Shown one piece after another: positions 16,901 through 57,900 of a DNA stretch of 64,000 bases (position 1 is the stretch's first letter; each line of letters opens with the position of its first letter). The position numbers were made by a program, and so were the translations under genes. This DNA is from Bispira polyomma (Eukaryota), in the NCBI GenBank assembly GCA_965649765.1, contig OZ287755.1, positions 29,326,001-29,390,000 of the forward strand, read 5' to 3'. The notes beneath the pieces are model-generated. The model was not told where the DNA came from, did no database searches, and saw only the letters and a program-made list of their open reading frames with translations.

Positions 16901-18556
16901 TGAACGTGGATACAAGCAAAACTGTCCTTCCTATGTGATATGACCATATTAGGAAAACTGACCGTTAAATAAATACATGAATTACATGGCAATGAACGGC
17001 CCAGTCTCACAAGATAGCTGGTGGTAAATAATGGTCAAAATAGTATGCTTATGTCCAGAGATTTTGACCTTTATTTGGAGGTAAAGATGAGGTGGTAGTG
17101 ATATGTTGGATGTTGGAAAATCTGATGCTAGTTTGGAGAAATTTTATTTACAGATAATTTTTGTACATCTATACAAAAGTTTTAAAATATATGATTTTTA
17201 AAACTTTAAAAAGCCATACGGCTTACTTGTAAGGCATAAAAAACCATTAAAAATAAACCAGTGTAACAAGCGACAAACCTTGTAACATTAAGGTAGTCAA
17301 CAAATAATCCCACAATATACGCAGGTTCTAACACATGTAATTCTAATATAGTTCACATAAAATATAAACTAGTGTAATAAAGTCATCACATAATATATAA
17401 TCCCACAGTATACGCGGGTTCTAACAACTGTAAACCTAGTATAGTTCACACTTTAAACCTGTTCATCTCAAAAGAAGTTACCATAGGTGTTTAAACATGA
17501 TCCAATTAATAAATCAATATATATACTTAAATCATGCAATCCAAACAAGGATGGATTCAAAATCGGAACCTGCGGCACCAACACGCCTAGCAATGGCCAA
17601 TCCTTCCCCACAGAGCTCCGAATTCCCTTGGCAGCCACGCCAAGGGCAAGTATATGGAGGAAAGGATCGCACCACTACACGGTTCCAACGTCGACTCCGC
17701 CCAAGTTCGAATTGCATGACTTTTCAAGAAGCAAATAATATCACTCAACACAGGGAGGGTGGGTGAGGTTAATTTTTAAAACTTGTATACCCTTTGGCTG
17801 TGGGTTTAATAATGAAGAGAAAGAGAAATAGACGGGGCATGTGTATTGAACCCTAACGACCCTGAATGCATATTGGTCGCTAGGAAGGTTAGAGTAAAGT
17901 GGCTAATTTGTGCGACTGACAAGACATGCCTTGAGGCAGTGACTCCGAATTTTAAACATGCAAGATAAGTGCCAGGTAGGCATTCACACTGTCCACAATC
18001 TATAGGGCTGTTTACTCCCGATGTGAAAACCTTAGTGATCTGGAGAAAACGTCCAACATCTGTGCAGAAACTGGTTGCATCAGTAAGAACGGGGGGCAGA
18101 GCCGGAAATTTTAAACATGTTTAAAACTTCCCTGGGTCGTCGGCTCTGAAAGCACATCTTGAGAGAACTGAAAAAAGTGTGTGATTAGGGCTTAAACGGT
18201 GTATAAACGGGACTTAAACTGCTCAGAACTTGTGTAAATGGGGCTTAAACTACTTAATCTGAAGCAATCTGAAGCAAACGTTACATTAACGTGTGATGAA
18301 CTGCTTAGATCTGGTCTGGTCTGGACATAAATTTGTCATAAACTGGTGAGATCTCTTCACAACCGGCCATATCCTAGACATAAACTAGACTAAACTTGGA
18401 CAATGTGACTGCCACATAGCGAAGAAAATTGCAAAATAAACGTGAAAGTGGGAGGCTCCCATAATAAACGTATTATGTTTTAGCATGAATACTAATAACC
18501 ATTATCTACCTTATGTATAATCACATGCCATCTGACTGTGCTTTTCCCAATAGGGT

Positions 18557-18783
18557 ATGTCGGGGCGGTCGCCCAGCCCCCAGCGCCGGAACCGGCCGTT
18601 TGAAATGCAGACGCCGGGCAAGAAACTGGTAGAAGAGATCCATGATGAGTTCCTGGTGTGTAAGATCTGCCTGGAAGGTTACAAAAACCCGAAGTGTCTC
18701 AACTGTCTGCACACATTCTGTGAGGAGTGCATAGAGAACCATGTGATGTCAGAGAGTACATACAAGAAGTACAGTGATTACAG
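18557..18783 (+). CDS. TRIM/RBCC E3 ubiquitin ligase, coding exon 1 (most of the RING finger)
   Basis: Encodes CKIC...CLHTFCEEC (C3HC4 RING, completed by CPLC in exon 2). Preceded by acceptor cttttcccaatag (ends 18553), so a 5'UTR exon lies upstream. Donor AG|GTAAGT at 18783, phase 2. Confidence 0.95.
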
Positions 18784-19658
18784 GTAAGTAGTTAGAGCTG
18801 ATGAGCAAGTGGTTTAAATTTCTGCAGTTATAAAATGTTAAGTTACATATAAAGCATTGATCATTTGCAAAATTAAATCAAGTGAAAATACAAGGAACAA
18901 AGGATGTGGCATAGAATAATTTTAATCAAAAATAAATTTAATGATCGATGGTATTTGTGGGAAAATATTTTCAACTCAGGAATCTGAGATGACATTGCTA
19001 TATAATTATTATGTTTCCTCGTTTATCTTTTAGATTCTAATTTTTGTTTTTGGTTTGTACAAGCAAAATACAATATTTCCTTTTGTAATGTATGCCGTAT
19101 ATTACTGTCAAAAAGTTTTATAATGGAAAAGTACCATTACTCTGTCAAAGAATTGTATATACTGTGGAGGGAAAAAAATATTAAGCTGCAAACTGTGGCT
19201 TAGTAGGTACCACACTTGCTAAGGAAACACATTCGTATCAATGACAGTTGTGTATTTAAGCGTACCACATTTAACCAGAATCCTTTTCTGGAATTACATA
19301 TTAATCTTGAAGGGTTCACCAAACAACCAATTTTAAATTGTATAATATAATTGAATATTCCACTCATTAAAAAAATATTGGTAATCGGTACTCTGAAGCT
19401 GAAAATGATTGTATCTTGCTGTCATATGTTATCGCAGAAAATTGTTATCAGGTGTAATTCTTATATTTTGTAAATCCCAGTGTGATAATGGTTACAAAGG
19501 AATACTAAAAGTAATAATTGTAATCTGTACTTACAAACAAAATTAAAATAGGGCTTATATATTTATGTGTTTCATGTGTTTCTTTGAATTAGTATTTAAA
19601 AAAAACACTGCTTCATTAAAACCACATGTAAGCTGGTGATGTGTTATTTTGTTTACAG

Positions 19659-20666
19659 AGACTTCACCTGTCCTCTGTGTCGAAAGAGAACAACCCTTCC
19701 AATAGGAGGAGTAAAGAAACTTCCAGACAACTTCCTAGTGTCCAGTCTGACAGAAGTGGTTTCTAGGCAAAAACCCTCTAAATACCCATTTTGCGACATA
19801 TGTAAGATGATCAACAAGAAGCACAAAGATGCGGCTTCAAAGTGTTTGGACTGTGCCAAGCTCCTCTGTTCACAATGTGTCCAGATGCATAAAGAAACCA
19901 AGGTCACGGCCAACCACTCCATCTTCGACATTGAGATTGAGAAGGACATAGAATGCAAGGAGCATCAGGATGAAGTGGTCAGATTCTACTGCGAGGTCTG
20001 CGAGACCTGTATCTGTGTTCTGTGTACCTTTAATGAACACAAAGACCACGAGATCACACAGTTCAAGGATGCAGTGGCCAAGTACAAAGAGAACATACAG
20101 CATCTTCTGAAGAAGTGTGAAGGCAAGATCATGGTCTTTGATTCTCATCTGGAGTCCCTGAACAAGTGTGAGGAGAATATCAAAGAAGCCGAGCAAAGGA
20201 TCCACGATACTGCTATACAGTACATTGCCGATATCCGCAACCGGGAGAAGCAACTCGTTGAAGAGATCCAGAATATCTACGGGGCTGAACTGATGAGGCA
20301 GATAGAGAACAAGAAAGAGCTGGGATTACAGATAGATGGACTGCGTAGTACATGCAGTCTCACAGAGGTGATACTCAAGGGCAAGGACATTGAACTCTTG
20401 TTGCTAAAAAAGGATGTCCAAGAAAAGCTGACCGTGCTGAATGGTGTGGAGATCAAAACTCCCCCTCAAACTGTGACAAAGAGGGTGTCTTTCGAAAAAG
20501 GACAGATTGATCTAGGATTCATCCACGACAAAGACAGACCATTGCTCACCAAAATGAGGCTAAATAAATCAGCAACCAACCAGGAGGAACAACATTTCGT
20601 GGAAAGTAAAGAAAGAAGTACCCAAACTGACCAACAGCAGAGGTATAGGAAAAATACCAAAACAAG
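19659..20666 (+). CDS. TRIM exon 2 (RING end, B-box1, B-box2, coiled coil)
   Basis: Acceptor ttttgtttacag, phase 2 matching exon 1 (AG+A = Arg, then DFTCPLCR). B-box1 CDIC...CLDC...LCSQC...H...H; B-box2 CKEH...YCEVC...CVLC...H..H; helical K/E/L-rich coiled coil. Donor AG|GTAAGA at 20666; an alternative same-phase donor AG|GTATAG at 20642. Confidence 0.93.
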
Positions 20667-21495
20667 GTAAGAGTTACAACTAATCTGCCACACAAATTCA
20701 CAGCCAATATCTTATCAGCCCATTTGATACTTATTATTACCTCTGCCATGAAGGTTTATGGTTTCTACTTGTTTATTTGGTCCCATAATACCACAAAATA
20801 CTACCGAGCCTGTATATATGAAGTTTTGTGGAGGGATCACGCATGGGAAAAGAGAAAATCTTTCAATTTTAGAAATCCAGGATTGTTGTTCTTTTCATTT
20901 TTTGGCCCACTTTAAAAGAGATATCTGCTCTATTAAGCCTAGGCTTCCTTTTAGGCAACCCCAACATCCACCGATTTATTTGAAATGAGCCGAGCCAACA
21001 TCAGCCGATGTAGCACTTGCTTATGTCCGATATCTACTAAACATTTTAATATAATTTTTTTTTAAATTCTTATTTTCGTTGGAAAATCGGGCACACCTCC
21101 CCACTTTTTGCTCCCTGACCAATAAATTATGATGGGCAAAAAGACATCGCCTAACGTCTGATATAATCTGAAGGAAATATGTTGACAGGAAGCACATCCT
21201 AATATTAAATAATGACTGATAAAATCGGCCAACATTGAAAAATATACCTAGGCTAAGTTTCTTTCAAGTTTAAAGAATAATTATCTTAGTTCATCTACTA
21301 AATAATATAACTTTTATATGATTTTGTTCTCAAGCTTATCAACAATTTATATTAATTAATTAATAAATGATCAAATAATTTTAATTGCTACTAATGTATA
21401 CCTTCAGCTGCACCACAGCCACAGACATTTTTTTTTAAATATACTAAAATTGTCAGTCAGTAACATTATTCTTGATTTTGTAATCGTGTTGCCAG

Positions 21496-21691
21496 GAACC
21501 ATGAGGACAGTGAGACAGACAGTGACCTTGACACCGAAGACAGTGAGGAAAGTGATGATGAAGAAGACAGGCCTGAACTGGTGGACTCTGGTGTTCAGAC
21601 AGAACAGAAAGAGACCACTGAATCCAGTTCAGGAAGTGATGCCGACGAGAGCGGTCCCGAGATGACCGACGATAGCACCATGACTGATAAG
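21496..21691 (+). CDS. TRIM exon 3 (acidic disordered segment)
   Basis: Acceptor gtgttgccag, phase 2. Open frame NHEDSETDSDLDTEDSEESDDEEDRPELVDSGVQTEQKETTESSSGSDADESGPEMTDDSTMTDK. Donor AAG|GTTAGG, phase 0. The ORF track shows another frame here. Confidence 0.85.
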
Positions 21692-24293
21692 GTTAGGAAG
21701 CCAAGAATGGGCTACTCTTTGAGGGTGCTTCATAGTTAGTAAAGGTGAGGTTCTGGTGAGGGGACTTAACATGTCTAGCTGCCTTGGTGCTGCTGTTGCT
21801 ACTACTAATAGATCCAACCTCCCTTTTCTGGCTTTCCTCTCTCTTTCATGGTCCTTTCTCCTTGTACATACCTTAAGCTCGCAGCCTAAGCTTGGACATA
21901 AATACATCTAAGTCTACAAGATAACAAGACGAAAAGGGTATTATTATCATGCAAAAGGTAAATACTCATTTTACTTCATTATTGGTCTATTTGAACTGAC
22001 CTTTAGCAGCTTTTAATATCAAATGATATGTATGCCACTACTGCAATAAGCATCCTTCTAAAGTTATTGTAATGATACGACAAATAAGTTCAGTCTTCAG
22101 TACGTAATTTAGACAAATGCCAATTCTGATATTACATTTTTAGGAGAGTAACACACATTTACAAACCAGAATTCCTTTATTTTTTACATTGTTTAAAGAT
22201 TCATACAAATATACATTGTTTGCCACACTATATGCCATAAAGAACACTTTCAATAAAGTAAAAATATAGTCTCATAGATGACTCATATATGTCAGAGAAA
22301 TCTATCCTATCCATATAGAGAAAAAGTGTAGTATGTAGTTGTAGTATCTTTCTAACAAGGCTCAGACAATATGCCTCTCTTAATTACTCATTGGTATGTC
22401 ACATTCATAGTGCTCTTTCCTTAAAATTTTAGGAAATTGTTTGAGTAAAACTTGCACAAAAATAAGTTAAAAACCCAGATATATGAGTGACGGTATATCT
22501 TACAAAGCTCTGGAATACACTTAGTCACTTCTAAATTACCCTCTTTGCTTGTAGTTTTCCAACTGTTACCTCCATGTAGTGGTAGATTAGATAAATGTCA
22601 ATTTGTTAAAACATACAGCAAAACCAAACCCATTCCAATACCACATTGTAACAGTGACAAAAAGATCAACATATTCAGGAGTTGCAGTTTATCAAACTTT
22701 ATTTCATATCATTAAACAAAATAACTAGATGAAATATGCTGTGAGTATAAGTTCCCAAAAATGTTGTTCTGTTTTAGTTTATTGATTGATTGACTCGTAT
22801 GTTTCTATAGCAGAACCATGTCTCAGCAAGCAAAGATTACATATGAGATTGTTATTTTGTAGGCTGGACATTTTAATTTAGTACAGCCTGATTTTGTGTT
22901 AAATGATTCCTTATCACAAGACTTAAATAGGTGTTGTTATTACTGCCCTAAATTCACGGAATTAATGTCTACCCAGGTAGATAAATCCGTTCTGCATCAT
23001 ACCATATTGATGTATAACAATCACATTGACTGACATTGTCAACGACAATGTTGCATAGGATTCAAATTATCAACATACATATTTGATGTTAGATTATAAT
23101 AGCTTTCTTATTAGAAGAGACAAGTCCCGACATGTCCCGAAATTGCCATTTCTTTTTGCTGTGGCCAGTTTAAAACCTACCCAAACCCCACCATGCCTCA
23201 CCTATACAAACATTGTGTGATTAACTAGTTAGTGGTTTACATTAATGAAGTAGTACATGCAGAGGAACCTCTATTAAATTGAATATTAATCACAGTTTCA
23301 TATTTGAGTACATGTTTAGCTTTATTGATATTATTATCTATTTCGGAAAGCATGTTTTTCTGTGTATTTTATAGAATGTTCATTAAAGCTACAAATGATT
23401 TTCTGTGTAGGTTTAAATATGTTATATCAATAGTTCATTTGTAAATACTTGATTAACAAGGGTTCACTTGGGTGAACAGTGTTTCAACCATCTGACGAAT
23501 TTGACTCATAAACAGTGTGTACATTATAAATTAGCCCACACCTTTGGCGAAGAACAAAGAAAAATACTTGAATGGTGGTATGAAATTGTCTATACTTATT
23601 GTTTAAGTAATAAGTGGAATTAAATGAAGGAAATGTAGATTAAATACAACATTTCCAGTGATTGAACACAAAATCTTACTTTTCTGAATTGTCACTCCTC
23701 CTCTGTTGGGTTATTTATTGACAATAAAATATGATAAGCCTCTTTTCCCTTTGCAAATTCCACATGAATTTGGAACTTTCAATAATAATAATGACTTCAT
23801 TTCAATTAATTGAGGTTCTTTTGTTACAATTTGGCAGATTTTTATTACCTTTGCCCAAACTATGTAAAGTCTCCATTTGACACACAACTTATTACATATA
23901 CAAATTTGAACAACTAAATAATGTTGCATTTAAATTTACATGCAATTGTTCATAGAATAAACTTATATAAGTCATTTGTGCTGATATGCTGTTATATATT
24001 TATATATATGTGTATGGAATTCTGCATGTGAACCTTTTTCCTTTTAGTATTATTTGTTAATATTAATAAACTGATATTTAATATTGTTAAGTTTTAACTT
24101 TTTTGGTTAATTTTGTATATATTTTATCTTTATGATATAATCTCATCAGACAAATGATTTTGTTTCTTTTTTTTTGTTTTGTATGTTAATAATAAATTCT
24201 GCATGATATACATATTTACTGATTTAACATTCTACCGAAAAAAATAGTAACATGTTTAATATGGTCCCAATCTATGTTTTTATATACATACAG

Positions 24294-24596
24294 ATTGAAA
24301 CAGAGGAGAAAGCAGTTAACACCAGATCACGTAGTCTTCAAACTCTTCGCAGATCAGATGACACTGAGGAGACACTCGCTGCTAGGCGCCGCCGCCGTCG
24401 TGATCGAGCTCATACCACTTACATAGGCAACAATAACCAATCCTCCAATAGTGTGGATTACCCAGATTCTGATGAAAATGTCTCCAGCTACGACCGCCGT
24501 AAGGGGAGACCCCGATCTTTGTACCACCACAGTGTGGATGAGAATGAAGTCTTTTACGATGCCGATACGAGGCAGGCCTCGGGGCAGCGGGTTTAG
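24294..24596 (+). CDS. TRIM exon 4, frame 0 (short isoform C-terminus; about 577 aa in total)
   Basis: Acceptor tttttatatacatacag, phase 0. Reads IETEEKAVNTRSRSLQT...RRRRR...DENEVFYDADTRQASGQRV then TAG. Confidence 0.8.
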   Translation: METEEKAVNTRSRSLQTLRRSDDTEETLAARRRRRRDRAHTTYIGNNNQSSNSVDYPDSDENVSSYDRRKGRPRSLYHHSVDENEVFYDADTRQASGQRV

Positions 24597-27500
24597 CAGC
24601 GATAGGTTTGCACAGACAGATATATCCTCAGTTAGTAAGACTGCTCAGAACATGAGGCTGTCTTCTTCCAGTTGGTCGGAATTCTTCTTCTCTTCAGAAG
24701 AAGAGTATGACGAAGTACCTGAGGATGTCAATCATCACCACCATGATGATCAATCTGAAGTTTCAAGAGGGAAGGCAGGGAAGAAAGAGATATCAGTGGT
24801 GCAGCCTACACAAACATCTCCCCACCCACCTTCCCAGTCTGTGCAAACACCCAATAGTCCTGCCAGTAAAATGGATCCCATACCAAACCAGAAGGGACCC
24901 AAAAATAAAGATATAAACTCAAAGTTGGATGATTCAAACCAAGACATATGTTCCAAACCAGTTTTTAAATTGCAAGTAACACCTATTCCTAGTAAAGACA
25001 CTGTGCTAATAAAACCTCCAACGCCCAAATTGCAACCTGAAACTCAAATTTCAAATCAAAGTTCACAACAGGTTAAGCCAGAAATACATGTTTCACAAAA
25101 ACAAGAGGGCACAAAGCAGCCTGAAAAGCAACAACAGGTGACTAAACAACCTATACAGCAACAGAAGGGAATTATGCAACCTGAACAGCAACAGAAGGTA
25201 AATGTGCAACCTGTATCTCAACAGCAAGTACATAAGCCACCACCTATACAGCAACTGCAGAAACAGCAGGCCAGCAACCAACCTGTTCTGCAACAAGCAA
25301 CTAAGCAACCAGAACAACAGCTCGTAAACAACCAGTCATTACAGCAACAAAAATCACCTGAACAGCCTATTCAGCAACAGCATACCACTAAACAACTTGT
25401 ACAGCAACAACAGACAACTAAGAAGCCTATACAGCAACCACATGTTACTAAAGAGCCCATACAGCATCAGCAGGCCACTACACAACCTGTAAAGCAACAG
25501 CAGGTAACTGAACAGCAAAAACAGATAATTAAACAACCTGTACAGCAACAACAGGCTACCAACCAACTGGTACAGAAACCACAGGCAACTAAGCAATTTG
25601 TGGAGCAACAACAAGTCATTAATCAAGCAGTACAGCAGCCACAGACAACTAAGCAACCTCAACAACAACAACATGTAACTAAGCAAACTGAGCAACAACA
25701 CCAGGTAACTAAGCAACCTGTACAACAACAACAGTTAACTAAGCCACCTGTACAACAACAGGTAACTAAGCAATCTGTACAACAACACCAGGTAACTAAG
25801 CAACCTGTACAACAACAACAGGTAACTAAGCAACCTGTACAACAACAACAGCTAACTAAGCAGCCTGTACAACAACAACAGCTAACTAAGCAATCTGTAC
25901 AACAACAACAGACAACTAAGCAATCTGTACAACAACAGGTAACTAAGCATCCTCTACAACAACACCAGCAAGTAACTAAGCAAAATGTACAGCAACAACA
26001 GGTAACTAAGCAACCTGAACTACAACAACAGCAAGTAACTAAGCAATCTGTACAACAACAACAACAGGTAACTAAGCAACCTGTACAACAACAACAACAG
26101 GGAACTAAGCAACCTGTACAACAACAACAACAGGGAACTAAGCAACCTGTACAACAACAACAGCAGGCAACTAAGCAACCTGTAAAACAACAACAGGGAA
26201 CTAAGCAACCTGTACAACAACATATAACTATGCATCCTGTACAACAACAGCAGGTAACTAAGCAAAATGTACAGCAACAACAGGTAACTAAGCAACCTGT
26301 GCAACAACAACAGCAAGTAACTAAACAACCTGTACAACAACAGGTAACTAAGCAACCTGTACAAAAACAACAGGTAACTCAGCAGCCTGTAGAACAACAA
26401 CAGGTAACTAAGCAACCTGTACAACAACAACAGGTAACTAAACAACCTGTACAAAAACAACAGGTAACTAAGCAACCGGTACAACAACAACAGGTAACTA
26501 TGCAGCCTGTACAACAACAACAGACAACTAAACAACCTGTACAACAACAACAGACAACTAAACAACCTGTACAACAACAACAGGTAACTAAGCAACCTGT
26601 ACAACAACAACAGGTAACTAAGCAGCCTGTACAACAACAACAGCAGGCAACCAAACAAAATGTACAACAACAACAGATACTTAAACAGCCTGCACAAGAA
26701 CAACAGATAACTAAACCTGTACAACAACAATCTAGCAAACAGGAGGTGATAATAAGAAGTCAATATGTACAACAACCAGTAATCAACCAAGCTGTACACC
26801 AGCATCAAGGAACACAGCAACCTGTACCACAACAACAAACAAAGAATGTTGTACATGAGCAAAAGCCTGCCTGTAAAAGTCCAGAAACATTGACGTCAAG
26901 GGATACACCGCACCAGCAAAACAAACAGAACACCACATTGATGAAGGTCAATCTTTGTCCGCCAAATCATATGGCATTGGTTACTTGTAAAAATATTACA
27001 GCAGATTCGCCTTCACTAATAATTGCGGCCAATAGAAATTCTATTAACAGTATCAATGTTGAGAAATCAATTACACCACAACAAGAGGCATCTGTAAATT
27101 TGGTACAGTCAAGTCTGATGAATGAAGTTCAAGATAAGAGAAACAGCGACAGTCAGAAAGACAATTTGCCAAACCAATCACAAATGAAACTAACTACAGT
27201 TCCTGTGACATCAGCAAGGGGTTTATCTATGATCAGGCATATGTCTAAGTCAAGAGAAAATAATTCTACAAACAAAGACAAGCCAATTGGGTCAAAGGTG
27301 ACAAACTTCGGGAGAAGTGTTCCCGATATGGGTAGATGTTTTAAACCAAAGCCAGTTCCACAAGCATCCACTGAAGATGCTCCCAGCAAGAAGGAATCTG
27401 AGATACGGCGCAAGTCAGTTTCATCAAATGCTCCAGACTGGCAGAAGTCTAGATATTTTGATGTTGAAGAGATAGAGAGGATCAAATCTAAAGCTCTGTT

Positions 27501-27744
27501 GAGGAACGAACAAAACAAAGAGCTGCCAAAGTATGTGAAGGTCGCCAGGTCAGACACCAGTGAAGTTAAGAATGAGGTGGAACAGCCAGAGGCTTCTGGT
27601 AGAGTACAAACGTCTCATCCTTCACCCTCACTCTCACGTGGCTCTGCGACTGGATCAACCGATTCCAAAAGTGGCCTTGAGAAAGGTAAGAGGAAAAAAG
27701 CAGATTCTAAAAGTAAAGGTAAAGACGAGTGTGTAACAATGTAA
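24451..27744 (+). CDS. Long Q-rich repeat ORF with C-terminal polybasic CaaX; probable extension of the TRIM protein
   Basis: 1097 codons without a stop in AT-rich DNA (frame open from 24427; the listed start is GTG, so not a likely initiator). Repeat length changes are multiples of 3. Non-repeat flanks are also open. Ends KGKRKKADSKSKGKDECVTM-stop. Confidence 0.8.
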   Translation: MWITQILMKMSPATTAVRGDPDLCTTTVWMRMKSFTMPIRGRPRGSGFSSDRFAQTDISSVSKTAQNMRLSSSSWSEFFFSSEEEYDEVPEDVNHHHHDDQSEVSRGKAGKKEISVVQPTQTSPHPPSQSVQTPNSPASKMDPIPNQKGPKNKDINSKLDDSNQDICSKPVFKLQVTPIPSKDTVLIKPPTPKLQPETQISNQSSQQVKPEIHVSQKQEGTKQPEKQQQVTKQPIQQQKGIMQPEQQQKVNVQPVSQQQVHKPPPIQQLQKQQASNQPVLQQATKQPEQQLVNNQSLQQQKSPEQPIQQQHTTKQLVQQQQTTKKPIQQPHVTKEPIQHQQATTQPVKQQQVTEQQKQIIKQPVQQQQATNQLVQKPQATKQFVEQQQVINQAVQQPQTTKQPQQQQHVTKQTEQQHQVTKQPVQQQQLTKPPVQQQVTKQSVQQHQVTKQPVQQQQVTKQPVQQQQLTKQPVQQQQLTKQSVQQQQTTKQSVQQQVTKHPLQQHQQVTKQNVQQQQVTKQPELQQQQVTKQSVQQQQQVTKQPVQQQQQGTKQPVQQQQQGTKQPVQQQQQATKQPVKQQQGTKQPVQQHITMHPVQQQQVTKQNVQQQQVTKQPVQQQQQVTKQPVQQQVTKQPVQKQQVTQQPVEQQQVTKQPVQQQQVTKQPVQKQQVTKQPVQQQQVTMQPVQQQQTTKQPVQQQQTTKQPVQQQQVTKQPVQQQQVTKQPVQQQQQATKQNVQQQQILKQPAQEQQITKPVQQQSSKQEVIIRSQYVQQPVINQAVHQHQGTQQPVPQQQTKNVVHEQKPACKSPETLTSRDTPHQQNKQNTTLMKVNLCPPNHMALVTCKNITADSPSLIIAANRNSINSINVEKSITPQQEASVNLVQSSLMNEVQDKRNSDSQKDNLPNQSQMKLTTVPVTSARGLSMIRHMSKSRENNSTNKDKPIGSKVTNFGRSVPDMGRCFKPKPVPQASTEDAPSKKESEIRRKSVSSNAPDWQKSRYFDVEEIERIKSKALLRNEQNKELPKYVKVARSDTSEVKNEVEQPEASGRVQTSHPSPSLSRGSATGSTDSKSGLEKGKRKKADSKSKGKDECVTM
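25110..26850 (+). repeat. Coding minisatellite, unit about 30 nt (ACTAAGCAACCTGTACAACAACAACAGGTA = TKQPVQQQQV)
   Basis: Dozens of tandem 27-33 nt units; most homogeneous at about 25670-26730 and more diverged at the edges. Confidence 0.95.
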
Positions 27745-29509
27745 AGCCAAATATTGCCAGTCTTAGAAACAATTCTGCATGACACACACACAATCTGCAT
27801 GATACTCAGCCTTGCCTTGGAGACTATTCTTATTATTATCCTTGCATATTTTGCCCACATTTTTATGTTCTTTTATTTTTCTTTCATTTCAGGGGGATAT
27901 ATAGTTGGCAATGCTTAGTTGTTGTTGCTTTGAAGACAGTAATATGTTCTGTTGGTGCTTCTTGTATCTGCCCTGATGGTGACGTCATATGGTTATAATA
28001 ATGACTTTCTTCCACAAGATTGTGGTCAATGCTTCTTAGATATTTCTGGAAATATCAGAAACAAACAAACATGATTTATATAACATGATATTTATTGTAT
28101 ATTGCATATCCCATAGTGTTACACTAACAGAAATTGTTCTGGATACTTAAGATTAGTCAAATATAAGTGGTCTAGTTTATATTTCAATTTACAAAAAAAT
28201 AATTGTGTTCTTTACATTTCAATTTACCAAGAACGGTGTTGAGTTGTTTAAATTTCAATTTACCAAAAAAGGTGGTGTCATATCAAACGTCTGATAGTTG
28301 AACTATTTCAATATTTGCAAGTTCTATAATAGTTATTTATACAAGGACATCTGCCCTGCATTATTGCTGTATGTCAAATTAACAGTTATTTGTATACGAT
28401 ATGCTTTAAGTTATTTTATATGTGTTATAATTATTATTTTTTTTACACAGTAATGCCTATATTTATATGTGTAATTTAAAACTGGGATGTTTTAAGCATT
28501 GAAGTAATATGTTTAGGTTGAATTACTGAGTTGTAATTCTGAAATCTTGTGTGTTATAGTTTCATTAGTCATTAGTCTTATAAGATAAGAATCTCTCTAC
28601 TTCGAATATGTTATTGAAATGTATGTAGTTTTTTTGATAAAACTCTGGTGTGTTAATTGGAACGAAAATAGAATTTTCAAAATTAAGAGATAAATAAATC
28701 AAATTAAATAGTCTGTGGTGGCTTCTCCTCACTACTGCAGTAAATTGTATCTTGCCAGTAGGCTTCGGCGAGTAAAATAAAGACAGTTTCACTCTATTAA
28801 TTCCCTTTGCTGGTCTCTCAAAGGGAATGATAATGTAAATAAATATTTGTTTAAGCTTTTTTTTATTGCATCATTTTTTGTCAGGTTAATGGTAACTATT
28901 AACTTTGGCAACAAAATGAAAAAGCGTATCATTGATGATCAAAATGTCAATACTAATACTAAATACTAAAATATATTTGTTGCAATAAGTTTGAATTTTA
29001 ATAAAATTATTTATTGTAATTGATGCTGTCGTTTTCACAGATGATTGAGAATGATGCAGTTTACTGAATCTAATATAAAAGCTACAGGGCTTTCACAATA
29101 CATAAAAAGGAGAATTTTTGATCAACACTTCCATATAACAAGACTTACAGTGATTTGACTACAGTTATGCATAAATTGTCGCCGATATTTTTGGAATAGC
29201 CAAATCAAATAGGCATTTTTATTTAAAGATAGTTACAACATTAACAAAATTAACAATTTTTGGCAGGATCCCTATTTATTCAGGAGTAAGCTTAGCACTG
29301 ACCTCTAATTAAACTGATTCTGGTAGTCAAACATTAAAAGTAGGAACTCGATGTGATAAGATTTACAATACAAGTAAGTGTTTAAGAAATCTACTGATGG
29401 AGTGTAGATAACCACTACATCCATGTTGTTACTAAATATTGACAGTGTGCATATTTCAAAACCACCTGATATAATGTCTACATCAAATACCGCCAGGTTT
29501 AGGACATTA

Positions 29510-54953: not shown

Positions 54954-57900
54954 CGTTTGGGGTTTGTAGAAGGAAGAGCTTAGAATCAAAACGTGGCATT
55001 GCTGGAGTTCAATTTATTTGTTTTAAAAAGTTTTTACCATTTTACTTAAACTACTCCAGTGATGCCTCTGATTAGTGCTAAAAAAGTGGTGAATTGTTTA
55101 CGGTGAAAAAAAACAACATGAAAGACCCTCGGGTCGGAATTGTACAGCCATGCTAACTGAGGTTGCTCAGCCAGTTGTCGTCCCGAGTACCAGGACCCAG
55201 ATGGATTCCACTCCTGATGGACAGGCAGTGCTAGCTATATTAACACACATGCAATCAATAAACATCATGATGGAGAAAATCGACAGGCGGGTACAAGCAA
55301 CGGATGAGGCAGTGTTGAAGAATAAAGCAACAGAACAGGCTGGTAACATTGTATCAAATACCATTTTAAACTCTAGCTCTGAAAACTCCAACGAAGGCCA
55401 CACGGGTAGTAATAACACTATTGTTCCTGGGGTCAAGTTCCTAAAACATAATGTCAAAATTCAAACGCAAGTGGAGCAAAGACTCAAGGAATTACAAAAT
55501 CTCAATGAGGGTCCAACCCAAGGTAGAGTGAAGTCCCAAGGAGGGGGTGGCTCTAATAATCTGGTCAAAAAAGTGGTCACGGGGCCTCAAAATTATGTCC
55601 TATCAGGAAGTGCCAAAACTAGACCCAGTTCTCATGAACTTACTGTAGCTCAGTGGGTGTGTGGGTTTACCCGTATTATCCAGGACGAAAAAAGTGTCGA
55701 AGTCAGAGGGGCTATGTTAGACCACATGGGTAGCCTTATGGAGGACGCACAGGATTTTTCCTGGGAAGCGGCTAAGGCTTGTCATGCAGTCTTATTAACA
55801 AATATGGAAATGGACAAATTGGGGTGGTTAAAAATCGGAAAAGTTGACTGAATACGTAAAGCTCATGCTCAATGCCACGTGTCCAGTAGTAGTGTCTCTT
55901 CTAACAATGGCACATGTAGTACAATAAGTACCAAGAAAGGTAATACAGAATCAAATGCTGTTACATGTCGTTTCTTCCAAGAAAGAAATTGTAAATTCTC
56001 GACACAAAATGGGGGAAAAATTTTATAAACACATGTGAGACGTGTGAGGGCAGACATAGAACGAGTCTATGCACAAAAAAGGGGCAAAAAAACTAGGTGG
56101 CCACTACAACAATGCAGTGGTTCAATGAGTAAATAGCCAAAATGTTGTAAGTAGAATGGTGTTCAATTCCAGTTTTAAGGATTTCCATCTATTTAACAAA
56201 AATGTCGTAAATAAAATGTGTACATATATGAAGGTCACCAAAGGTGATGTCACTTATAGCAAGGTGGTAAAAAGTAAAAAAGAGGGAAACGTATTGAACC
56301 TTATTGTGCACAGGTGGACAAATTCCTGCCAGAAGGTGTCGCAGAGAACAATTGTAAATAAAAGTAAGGTAAATGTAGAGCTCTCGAGAGGGACACAATA
56401 ACAAAAATGTGCACAAATTAAAGAGAGAGATGGTAGAATGGAAAACACAATGGACAAACAAAGAACTGTTCCCAATGAGGCCAAAGGGTATGTAGAACAA
56501 TTCCCAGCAGTACTGCTGGAAAATAGGTTTTCTGCCTTTATGAAGTATGTACTGAGCTGTGAGGAGGTGTGAATAACACCAACCCCCAAACTATTGTGAA
56601 AGTCAAAAGTAGAAACAATAAGTCGAGAGAAGGATGTGTGAATAACACTAACCCCAGGTGTGAAACAAAAAAATCAAGCGGCTGTGTGAATAGGGCCAAC
56701 CATAATGAGTGAGCAAAAACAAAGTCAATTCGCGTATGGCTTCACACCTTTGTCTAGTTTAGGTAATAAAATCACAGATAGAAACAAGAACAAATCTGAA
56801 GTGAATATCTTGAAAGCCCATACTAAAATCGTGCAGGTGGAAGGCACAACTATGTTGGTTTACAAATTCCAGTGCAGTGTCAACTAAATGAAGAAAGGTG
56901 GAAACAGTATTTACACGACTATTGGAATTGGCCTCTGCTCATTAAATACAGTTTCCCCCTTGACTTTAACCGGAAGGAAACAGTTGAATCAAATGGTGAT
57001 AATCATAAATCCGTTGACGAGTTCCCTAGACAATTAGACTTGTATTTAAACGAAGAATATAAATTGGATGCCATATTGGGTCCCTTTAAACAAAATCTAA
57101 TTGAAAACCTCTCTTTCACCTCCCTAATGACCAGGGATAAATCTAGCTCAGCTAACCGACGTGTAATTGTGGATTTAAGTTGGCCCAAAGGGGCTTCCGT
57201 CAATGTGGGGGTTTGCCCCTCGTCGTACCTAGGAACAGACTTTCTATTGTCATATTCATCTATTGACAGTCTTACAAAGGAGCTTAATAAACTTGGAAAG
57301 GGTGAGTCGCGCCTTTCGCCACATTCCTATTGATCTGGGGGACATTGATTTGTTAGCGTTAAAATGGAACTCCTTTTATATAGACAAATCTTTACCGTTC
57401 GGATGCCAGAATGGGTCCACAATTTTTCAGCGTCTTTTGGACACAGTTTCCTTTATAATGAAATCTGAGGGACACAGCATCCACAACTATATTGATGATC
57501 TTCTTTGCGGCTCATTACCAAATAAATCAATCAAACATAAGACCGATTACAAGAACTCCTATCCGAACTTGGACTCACTGTTAGTTAAAAGACAATAGTG
57601 GCTCCAGCAACACAGGTTGTTTGCTCAGGCATAATAATTGATACAGTAGAAAGCACTACATGAATTCCTAGTGAAAAACTGATGGAAATAAAAAAAACTA
57701 TGCAAATTCTGGGAATTAAAAACTCATTGTACTAAGCGTGAATTGCAATCCTTTCTAGGTCTTCTACTATACGTTGCAAAGTGTATCAAATATGCTATAG
57801 TTTTTCTAAACAGAATGTTAGAATTGCTTAGAGACAATCATAGTAAATAAAGATTCAAAATTACTTTGCAGTAGCCTTAAAAATATGGGCAAAAATCTGG

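Follow-up and report, generated by a model that had tools for sequence, protein, structure and literature searches.

The stretch analysed here, the window, comprises 64,000 nucleotides (nt) of Bispira polyomma DNA (NCBI GenBank assembly GCA_965649765.1, contig OZ287755.1, positions 29,326,001 to 29,390,000 of the forward strand, numbered below from its first letter). It carries, on the plus strand, a four-exon RING/B-box gene of the TRIM (RBCC) class, whose open reading frame (ORF1) ends in a TAG and is overlapped there, in the +1 frame, by a second long frame (ORF2). An earlier note had proposed that a hidden intron at 24499-24697 deletes the stop and fuses the two frames; the data described below point instead to a probable +1 ribosomal frameshift at the stop codon itself.

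The coding exons of the TRIM gene lie at 18554-18783, 19659-20666, 21496-21691, and from 24294 onward, and the introns between them (875, 829, and 2,602 nt) were all canonical. Exon 1 encodes the RING finger (Pfam RING families over cut-off) and is followed by the donor CAG|GTAAGT at 18784; a further exon probably lies upstream of it, and none was located. Exon 2 encodes the end of the RING, the B-boxes (zf-B_box, E 1.4e-13), and a predicted coiled coil, ends in phase 2, and was 58-71% identical to its 32 best ortholog matches. RING and B-box domains were found by Pfam in the order expected of the class, and the coiled coil after the B-boxes is predicted from the family architecture and the alignment. 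Exon 3, bounded by its splice sites and ending in phase 0, encodes an acidic linker that is also present in orthologs. Five coding stretches were scanned with Pfam, and neither an NHL nor any other C-terminal domain turned up. The last coding exon of ORF1 (24294-24596) encodes an Arg-rich motif, an FFAT-like motif, and the stop codon TAG (24594-24596); counted from the ATG at 18605, ORF1 is 561 amino acids (aa) long. Its best homologs were lophotrochozoan "TRIM45/56-like" proteins of about 590-710 aa, and it fell among annelid-like sequences in a quick tree, which suggests that the organism is an annelid. Exon 4 as the sole query found one relative. The ORF1 tail beyond 24499 was conserved among the annelid-like orthologs. 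Its FFAT-like motif, E-V-F-Y-D-A-D-T (24546-24569), lies inside the proposed intron, and a similar motif was present in 9 of the 16 ortholog tails examined. Compared with the FFAT consensus given as EFFDAxE (PMC8306308), it agrees at F2, D4, and A5, has V at position 1, Y at position 3, and T at position 7, and has an acidic flank.

The second frame is open from 24427 to 27744 (1,105 codons from stop to stop), and ORF2, the part of this frame past the site, covers 24595-27744 (1,049 codons). It is of low complexity (27% Gln) and contains a lineage-specific, Gln-rich tandem repeat with approximate limits 25400 and 26720, in which TKQPVQ occurs in 18 exact copies. Behind a Lys/Asp-rich stretch it ends in the CaaX motif C-V-T-M and a stop (27730-27744). 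The roles of the FFAT-like and CaaX motifs in the TRIM forms are predicted from the consensus sequences. ORF2 gave no convincing Pfam family, two composition-driven matches lying below cut-off; for its C-terminus, a second copy was not found in the genome and the Atlas yielded no usable match. The first cluster of AATAAA signals past the ORF2 stop was at 28693-29005, and none occurred between the ORF1 stop and 24904, which agrees with a single long last exon.

The DNA around the overlap was compared with contigs from three DNA runs, which may come from the source sample. These contigs showed zero differences from the assembly at 21236-25200, and the runs were genomic, as judged by flat depth across the introns and by the absence of splice joints. 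An assembly frameshift was ruled out by this agreement and by the recurrence of the layout in other species. Immediately before the compared segment, at 21000-21236 in intron 2, lies a high-copy repeat fragment with a summed depth more than 100 times the background.

Orthologous loci were collected by a metagenome scan, which gave 77 loci; 22 of these held the last coding exon by the pattern used, and 18 were left after four duplicates were dropped. The comparison set consisted of the window and two loci, L011 and L012, which have a long +1 frame, and 16 distinct loci without it. In the first group the +1 frame was open through the stop for 1,049 codons in the window, at least 176 in L011, and at least 104 in L012, running in both relatives to the contig end. 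Among the other 16 the longest +1 run was 81 codons, and in one of them (L033) this frame probably continues into intron sequence. L011 is genomic and carries no intron between the RING and the end of its contig, ORF2 included; the acceptor position of exon 1 recurs in it and is spliced in L012. In L012 the first intron has been spliced out, both frames lie in one piece, and there is no good donor near the site; judged by its joined N-terminus, this locus looks like a mature mRNA carrying both frames. In the quick tree L011 and L012 were sister rows with a support of 98, and the window stood outside the pair, with weak intervening nodes (81-88). No relatives were found in the prokaryotic and viral contigs scanned. 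One annelid-like TRIM (P0001, EukProt) was filed under a gregarine parasite, in the Siedleckia nematoides transcriptome, and is likely host contamination.

The sequence at the stop separated the two groups of loci. The heptamer GTT TAG C (a Val codon, the stop, and C; 24591-24597 in the window) was identical in the window, L011, and L012, that is in 3 of 3 loci with the long +1 frame, and GTT-stop-C occurred in none of the 16 loci without it. The short frame ends in GGG CAG CGG GTT TAG C in the window and in GGG CAT CGN GTT TAG C in both relatives. Synonymous positions across the gene had otherwise diverged well: of 62 four-fold degenerate columns, ten had a codon common to the three loci, and the Gly and Val codons of the site made up two of the ten; given Val, the chance of GTT in all three was 0.007 by each gene's own codon usage. 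From the stop to a conserved Trp codon the +1 frame was open for 26, 36, and 26 codons in the three loci, for which the shuffle chances were 0.20, 0.15, and 0.22. Over the same interval both other frames were closed by stops in all three loci, and the length differences were whole codons.

The kind of constraint also changed at this point. Upstream of the stop, frame 0 was conserved better in all three pairs, with 9, 9, and 11 of 14 residues shared versus 6, 7, and 8 in the +1 frame, a comparison that covers few codons (14 per pair). Downstream of the stop, the differences between L011 and L012 were concentrated at third positions of the +1 frame (42/40/66). Constraint on frame 0 upstream and on the +1 frame downstream indicates that the frame switches at or very near the stop. 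Readthrough of the stop codon was ruled out as the way into ORF2, the next in-frame stop lying within 2, 10, and 6 codons, and so was a -1 shift, whose frame runs into a stop within 13-19 codons. A -2 shift would enter the frame that a +1 shift enters, and sequence does not separate the two.

Homologs of ORF2 by position were obtained with a profile of the L011/L012-type +1 frames. P0296 (ENA, 1,079 aa) and P0297 (Paralvinella palmiformis LSH36_12g22034, 1,161 aa), both known here from protein alone, are stand-alone database entries of low complexity, rich in Ser, Pro, and Thr, unlike the Gln-rich repeat of the window ORF2, and they end in E-C-S-M-M behind a Lys/Asp-rich run. Atlas matches to the P0297 N-terminus stayed below 0.8 and were set aside. 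Prenylation at a CaaX end follows the rule of a Cys four residues from the C-terminus in a sequence ending in Met, and both CVTM in the window and CSMM in P0296 and P0297 agree with it. At its N-terminus, P0296 looks like this short-frame ending read in the +1 frame, which would imply the same site in a fourth sequence. A TRIM-plus-ORF2 fusion was absent from the 105 longer homologs. The window ORF2 contains an acidic Ser/Trp/aromatic motif at 24652-24717, whose Trp codon (24673-24675) stands 27 codons past the GTT TAG C site, as it does in L012. With a 22-residue profile made from four relatives, this segment scored 24.2, the top of the 35,051 stop-free 22-mers of the window (next 17.8), and only 19 of 20,000 shuffles reached that score at the fixed offset.

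One could suppose that ORF2 is not expressed with the TRIM gene or at all, being a decayed tail or a sequencing artefact. Its low complexity and its lack of a convincing Pfam family or an Atlas match would suit this idea. However, its 1,049 open codons end exactly in a CaaX motif, the homologous frames elsewhere change with a bias to third positions, and the DNA contigs agree with the assembly, so that we hold this explanation to be very improbable.

The two frames are very likely parts of a single TRIM gene that has a short form ending after the FFAT-like motif and a long form ending in CaaX: both the short tail and the long CaaX frame are conserved, and mollusc and nemertean isoforms differ by a tail with a lipidation signal. 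To this extent the proposal of the earlier note, one gene with a short FFAT-like end and a long CaaX end, was borne out; the joining of the two by the 24499-24697 intron was not. We propose that programmed +1 frameshifting at 24591-24597, rather than a hidden intron, links ORF1 and ORF2, and we put the probability of this reading, which is drawn from comparison of sequences, at about 0.6.

The elements of the proposed intron are present in the sequence: the donor GCC|GTAAGG at 24498/24499 in phase 1, and a pyrimidine-rich acceptor AG ending at 24697, also in phase 1, 199 nt in all. The joined product is stop-free and would be 1,544 aa from the ATG at 18605 or 1,560 aa from that at 18557. With 14 GT sites in exon 4 and many AGs in the region, chance alone should provide a pair of compatible phase. 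The splice-site scoring suggested with the original proposal was carried out with a matrix of 40 donors and 48 acceptors (43 orthologous-locus junctions, the window's own sites, and one L011 site), a small and partly homologous training set that over-penalises a non-AG exon end. The acceptor scored at the median of true sites, with 23 of 48 true acceptors lower, but the donor fell below all 40 true donors; its weak exonic bases had been noted as a caveat, and a C at position -1 was found in 0 of 40. The second caveat, that the pyrimidine tract could simply reflect codons, also held, since the tract encodes part of the Ser/Trp/Phe motif conserved in the long frame.

The comparison with relatives bore on the same intron. 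L011 has almost the same donor 9-mer and, 131 nt beyond its own stop, a weak AG in phase 1, and spliced CaaX tails have a precedent in the family. On the other side, the donor is missing in L012, the three loci have no donor-acceptor pair in common, and the intron would take out the Ser-Trp part of the conserved motif, 15 of whose 22 codons lie inside it; the part of the motif left after splicing scored 2.5, versus 24.2 for the whole. Moreover, if an intron covered the stop, the sequence from there to the acceptor could pick up stops and drift in frame, whereas the +1 frame stays open and keeps its register in the window, L011, and L012. Removal of 24499-24697, with loss of the FFAT-like motif and the stop to give the 1,560-aa CaaX form, is therefore improbable as the explanation of the two frames and probably not the main route; that the intron occurs at all, for example in a minor isoform beside the frameshift, seems a little less improbable but still unlikely.

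Splicing could also reach ORF2 from an upstream donor to an acceptor at or just past the stop (TTTAG|C at 24596, or an AG at 24605, 24615, or 24619), which would make ORF2, including the Trp motif, an alternative last exon. The conserved TTTAG fits an acceptor and would account for the stop being TAG; 24596 and 24605 are in phase 2, as are the donors of exons 1 and 2, 24615 is in phase 0, as is that of exon 3, and 24605 scored well. Tails are changed by splicing in Patella and Tubulanus. However, TTTAG|C scored near the bottom in all three loci, with only 1-2 of the 48 true acceptors lower, and the TTTAG of the window has a second AG close upstream, an arrangement seen in 1 of 48 true acceptors. 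The coding region of L011 has no introns to supply donors, no phase-2 donor is common by position to L011 and L012, and the acceptors at 24605, 24615, and 24619 occur in the window only. We regard this route, too, as improbable.

Separate initiation is the main rival of the frameshift, although we consider it rather unlikely: ORF2 would be a protein of its own, whose translation begins at an AUG within the overlap, through reinitiation once ORF1 has terminated or on a separate, shorter mRNA. In each of the three loci AUGs occur in the +1 frame 35-47 nt ahead of the stop, Met residues stand at the start of P0296, G-x-x-F-S is common to the +1 frame immediately before the stop, and P0297 is annotated as its own gene in Paralvinella. 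Yet these AUGs are unaligned between species and arise incidentally from the Asp/Asn codons that spell the FFAT-like motif; ahead of the stop, frame 0 was better conserved than the +1 frame. The sequence GCCTC just before the stop differs in register by one base from species to species, so that neither reading frame is preserved there, and L011, L012, and P0296 have no AUG between the stop and the Trp motif.

Several of these observations, and some further ones, weigh against a frameshift. The AUGs before the stop and the TTTAG at the site as a possible splice acceptor are two of them, and separate initiation could also explain the conserved codons before the stop as dual-coding letters. No 3' structure was found, six segments folding no better than shuffles (z 0.5 to 2.2), with pseudoknots outside the tool. 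L011 has the same 12 nt around the 24499 donor, including two Arg codons, where elsewhere 2 of 24 aligned Arg codons match; 12-nt matches between these two genes were otherwise common, with 50 shared 12-mers. The Patella and Tubulanus orthologs vary their C-termini as RefSeq isoforms, a splicing precedent within the family. DNA comes from three loci only, and the sisterhood of L011 and L012 leaves about two independent lineages. For P0297, adjacency to a TRIM gene was not seen. By BLAST the window ORF2 did not match P0296 or P0297 significantly (best E 0.83), and its homology with them is argued from its position, its length, a single short motif, and the terminal CaaX; the score of that motif was reached by shuffles at any offset in 1,064 of 20,000 cases (5%). 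The mechanism at GUU_stop_C in closteroviruses, discussed below, is itself described as not fully resolved.

If a +1 frameshift operates at GUU_UAG_C, a fraction of the ribosomes would slip there: while the stop codon is slowly decoded in the A site, the Val tRNA in the P site would shift from GUU to UUU, and translation would continue at AGC, giving the junction ...Q-R-V-S-S-D-R.... The main product of the single mRNA would have about 580 aa and terminate behind the FFAT-like motif, and a less abundant product of about 1,630 aa would keep this motif and gain a disordered tail with a predicted prenylation motif; the predicted frameshift product counts 1,610 aa from the ATG at 18605 and 1,626 aa from that at 18557. 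It had been suggested before that the long form loses the FFAT-like motif and that the two forms switch between the endoplasmic reticulum (ER) and the plasma membrane. The loss depends on the unsupported intron, and a frameshift product with both the FFAT-like and CaaX motifs suggests a two-ended tether instead of a switch. More speculatively, TRIM dimers of one long and one short chain would bring the RING activity to contacts between the ER and the membrane.

Conserved nucleotides 5' of the stop (GCCTC-GGG..., 24576-24590) form a candidate 5' stimulator, and the full pattern occurs once in the genome. GCCTC stands 12-13 nt before the stop in the window, L011, and L012, in two registers, the window being off by one base from its two relatives. 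It also occurs 11 nt before the stop at the antizyme site of the same genome, a resemblance noted post hoc. This antizyme-like 5' element may boost the shift, which would make it responsive to polyamines or to termination efficiency. Beside these sequences, a conserved 3' element beginning CTAGGCAT was observed just past the ORF1 stop in several loci whose short frame ends in K-Q-L or similar. It resembles GCCTCGGGCAT, which precedes the stop in L011 and L012, and was clear in L036, L045, L046, L055, and L058 but not in L034 or L042. Since it lies in different frames it looks non-coding, and it may be a relic of a frameshift cassette.

Elsewhere in the window, at 55093-57598, several frames of 120-250 codons were observed, with no Pfam match in the two that were scanned; by their appearance they may be a decayed retroelement.

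No report of the proposed frameshift was found in the literature searched, subscription papers lying outside its scope. Very few phylogenetically conserved frameshifts in nuclear genes are described as known (PMC12551717). If the reading is correct, GUU_UAG_C in an animal gene would add a rare conserved case outside antizyme, and the gene would offer a cellular, easily cloned test of the GUU_stop_C mechanism. Genome annotations would then have divided a single gene into two, a possibility suggested by the stand-alone Paralvinella entry, and within one protein family the lipid-anchored form would arise through splicing in some phyla and through recoding in another. We lean, with slightly less assurance than for the shift itself, toward the fuller picture of an annelid TRIM ligase in which a closterovirus-type GUU_UAG_C shift, possibly with an antizyme-like 5' boost, would produce a minor, membrane-anchored form that binds the ER through its FFAT-like motif and carries a prenyl anchor far from it, recoding having replaced splicing.

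The closest match to the site is in the Closteroviridae, where GUU_stop_C is described as the conserved, proposed +1 site between ORF1a and ORF1b and where AUG initiation is described as excluded by many genomes (PMC3542737, PMC4227794, PMC10053543); according to a review, the shift probably needs no stimulator and is inefficient (PMC5009743). The heptamer GUU UAG C of the window is identical, ORF2 is likewise in the +1 frame, the proposed P-site slip is likewise GUU to UUU, and in both no 3' stimulator is evident. However, the closteroviruses are plant RNA viruses in which the product is a polymerase, whereas the window has a nuclear animal gene with a disordered CaaX tail, and no viral descent is implied.

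Antizyme provides a cellular shifty-stop +1 site; GUU-UGA is reported as a natural antizyme site, and UAG as stimulating almost as well as UGA (PMC1874602). The match of GUU_stop_C to closterovirus and antizyme sites was counted as precedent for the frameshift. The two cellular genes also resemble each other in a conserved 5' sequence, of which one module can shift register by one base; GCCTC may correspond to antizyme module B. The window TRIM differs in that it has no ODC_AZ domain, its ORF1 is a full protein, its stop is UAG and not UGA, and no pseudoknot was found. Pfam gave no ODC_AZ (PF02100) match in ORF1 or ORF2, and the antizyme gene of the same genome lies on another contig (G000:C3 near 61663313, minus strand, L089), with the canonical site TGG TGT TCC TGA. 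Human PLEKHM2 is a conserved +1 frameshift in a nuclear gene that likewise yields another proteoform, with a different C-terminus and an altered localisation, but its core CC_UUU_C is internal with no stop in the A site, and the case is vertebrate and experimentally shown (PMC12551717).

Within the TRIM family, a TRIM45/56-like paralog in the same genome (G000:C1:74811744 onward; L004, L091) is likewise an RBCC protein without a C-terminal NHL or SPRY domain, with a long tail and the size of the predicted frameshift product. It differs in that the long tail is in frame, in a single frame of 1,678 codons that has no CaaX end in this genome. In Littorina, one isoform of this paralog ends in CaaX and one does not. 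The same gene as that of the window makes a short form and a longer form ending in a CaaX or Cys-rich motif in two other lophotrochozoans. In Patella vulgata, the TRIM45/56-like isoforms X1-X4 end in CaaX and X5 is short; in Tubulanus polymorphus, X1-X2 end in a Cys cluster and X3-X4 are short, and all four retain the FFAT-like stretch. The four mollusc-like loci with DNA showed no overlapping +1 frame. The Patella and Tubulanus tails, of about 130-240 aa, are annotated as splice isoforms, unlike the tail of the window gene. Molluscs and nemerteans would make the equivalent lipid-anchored form by splicing, and recoding would have replaced splicing in the annelid lineage.

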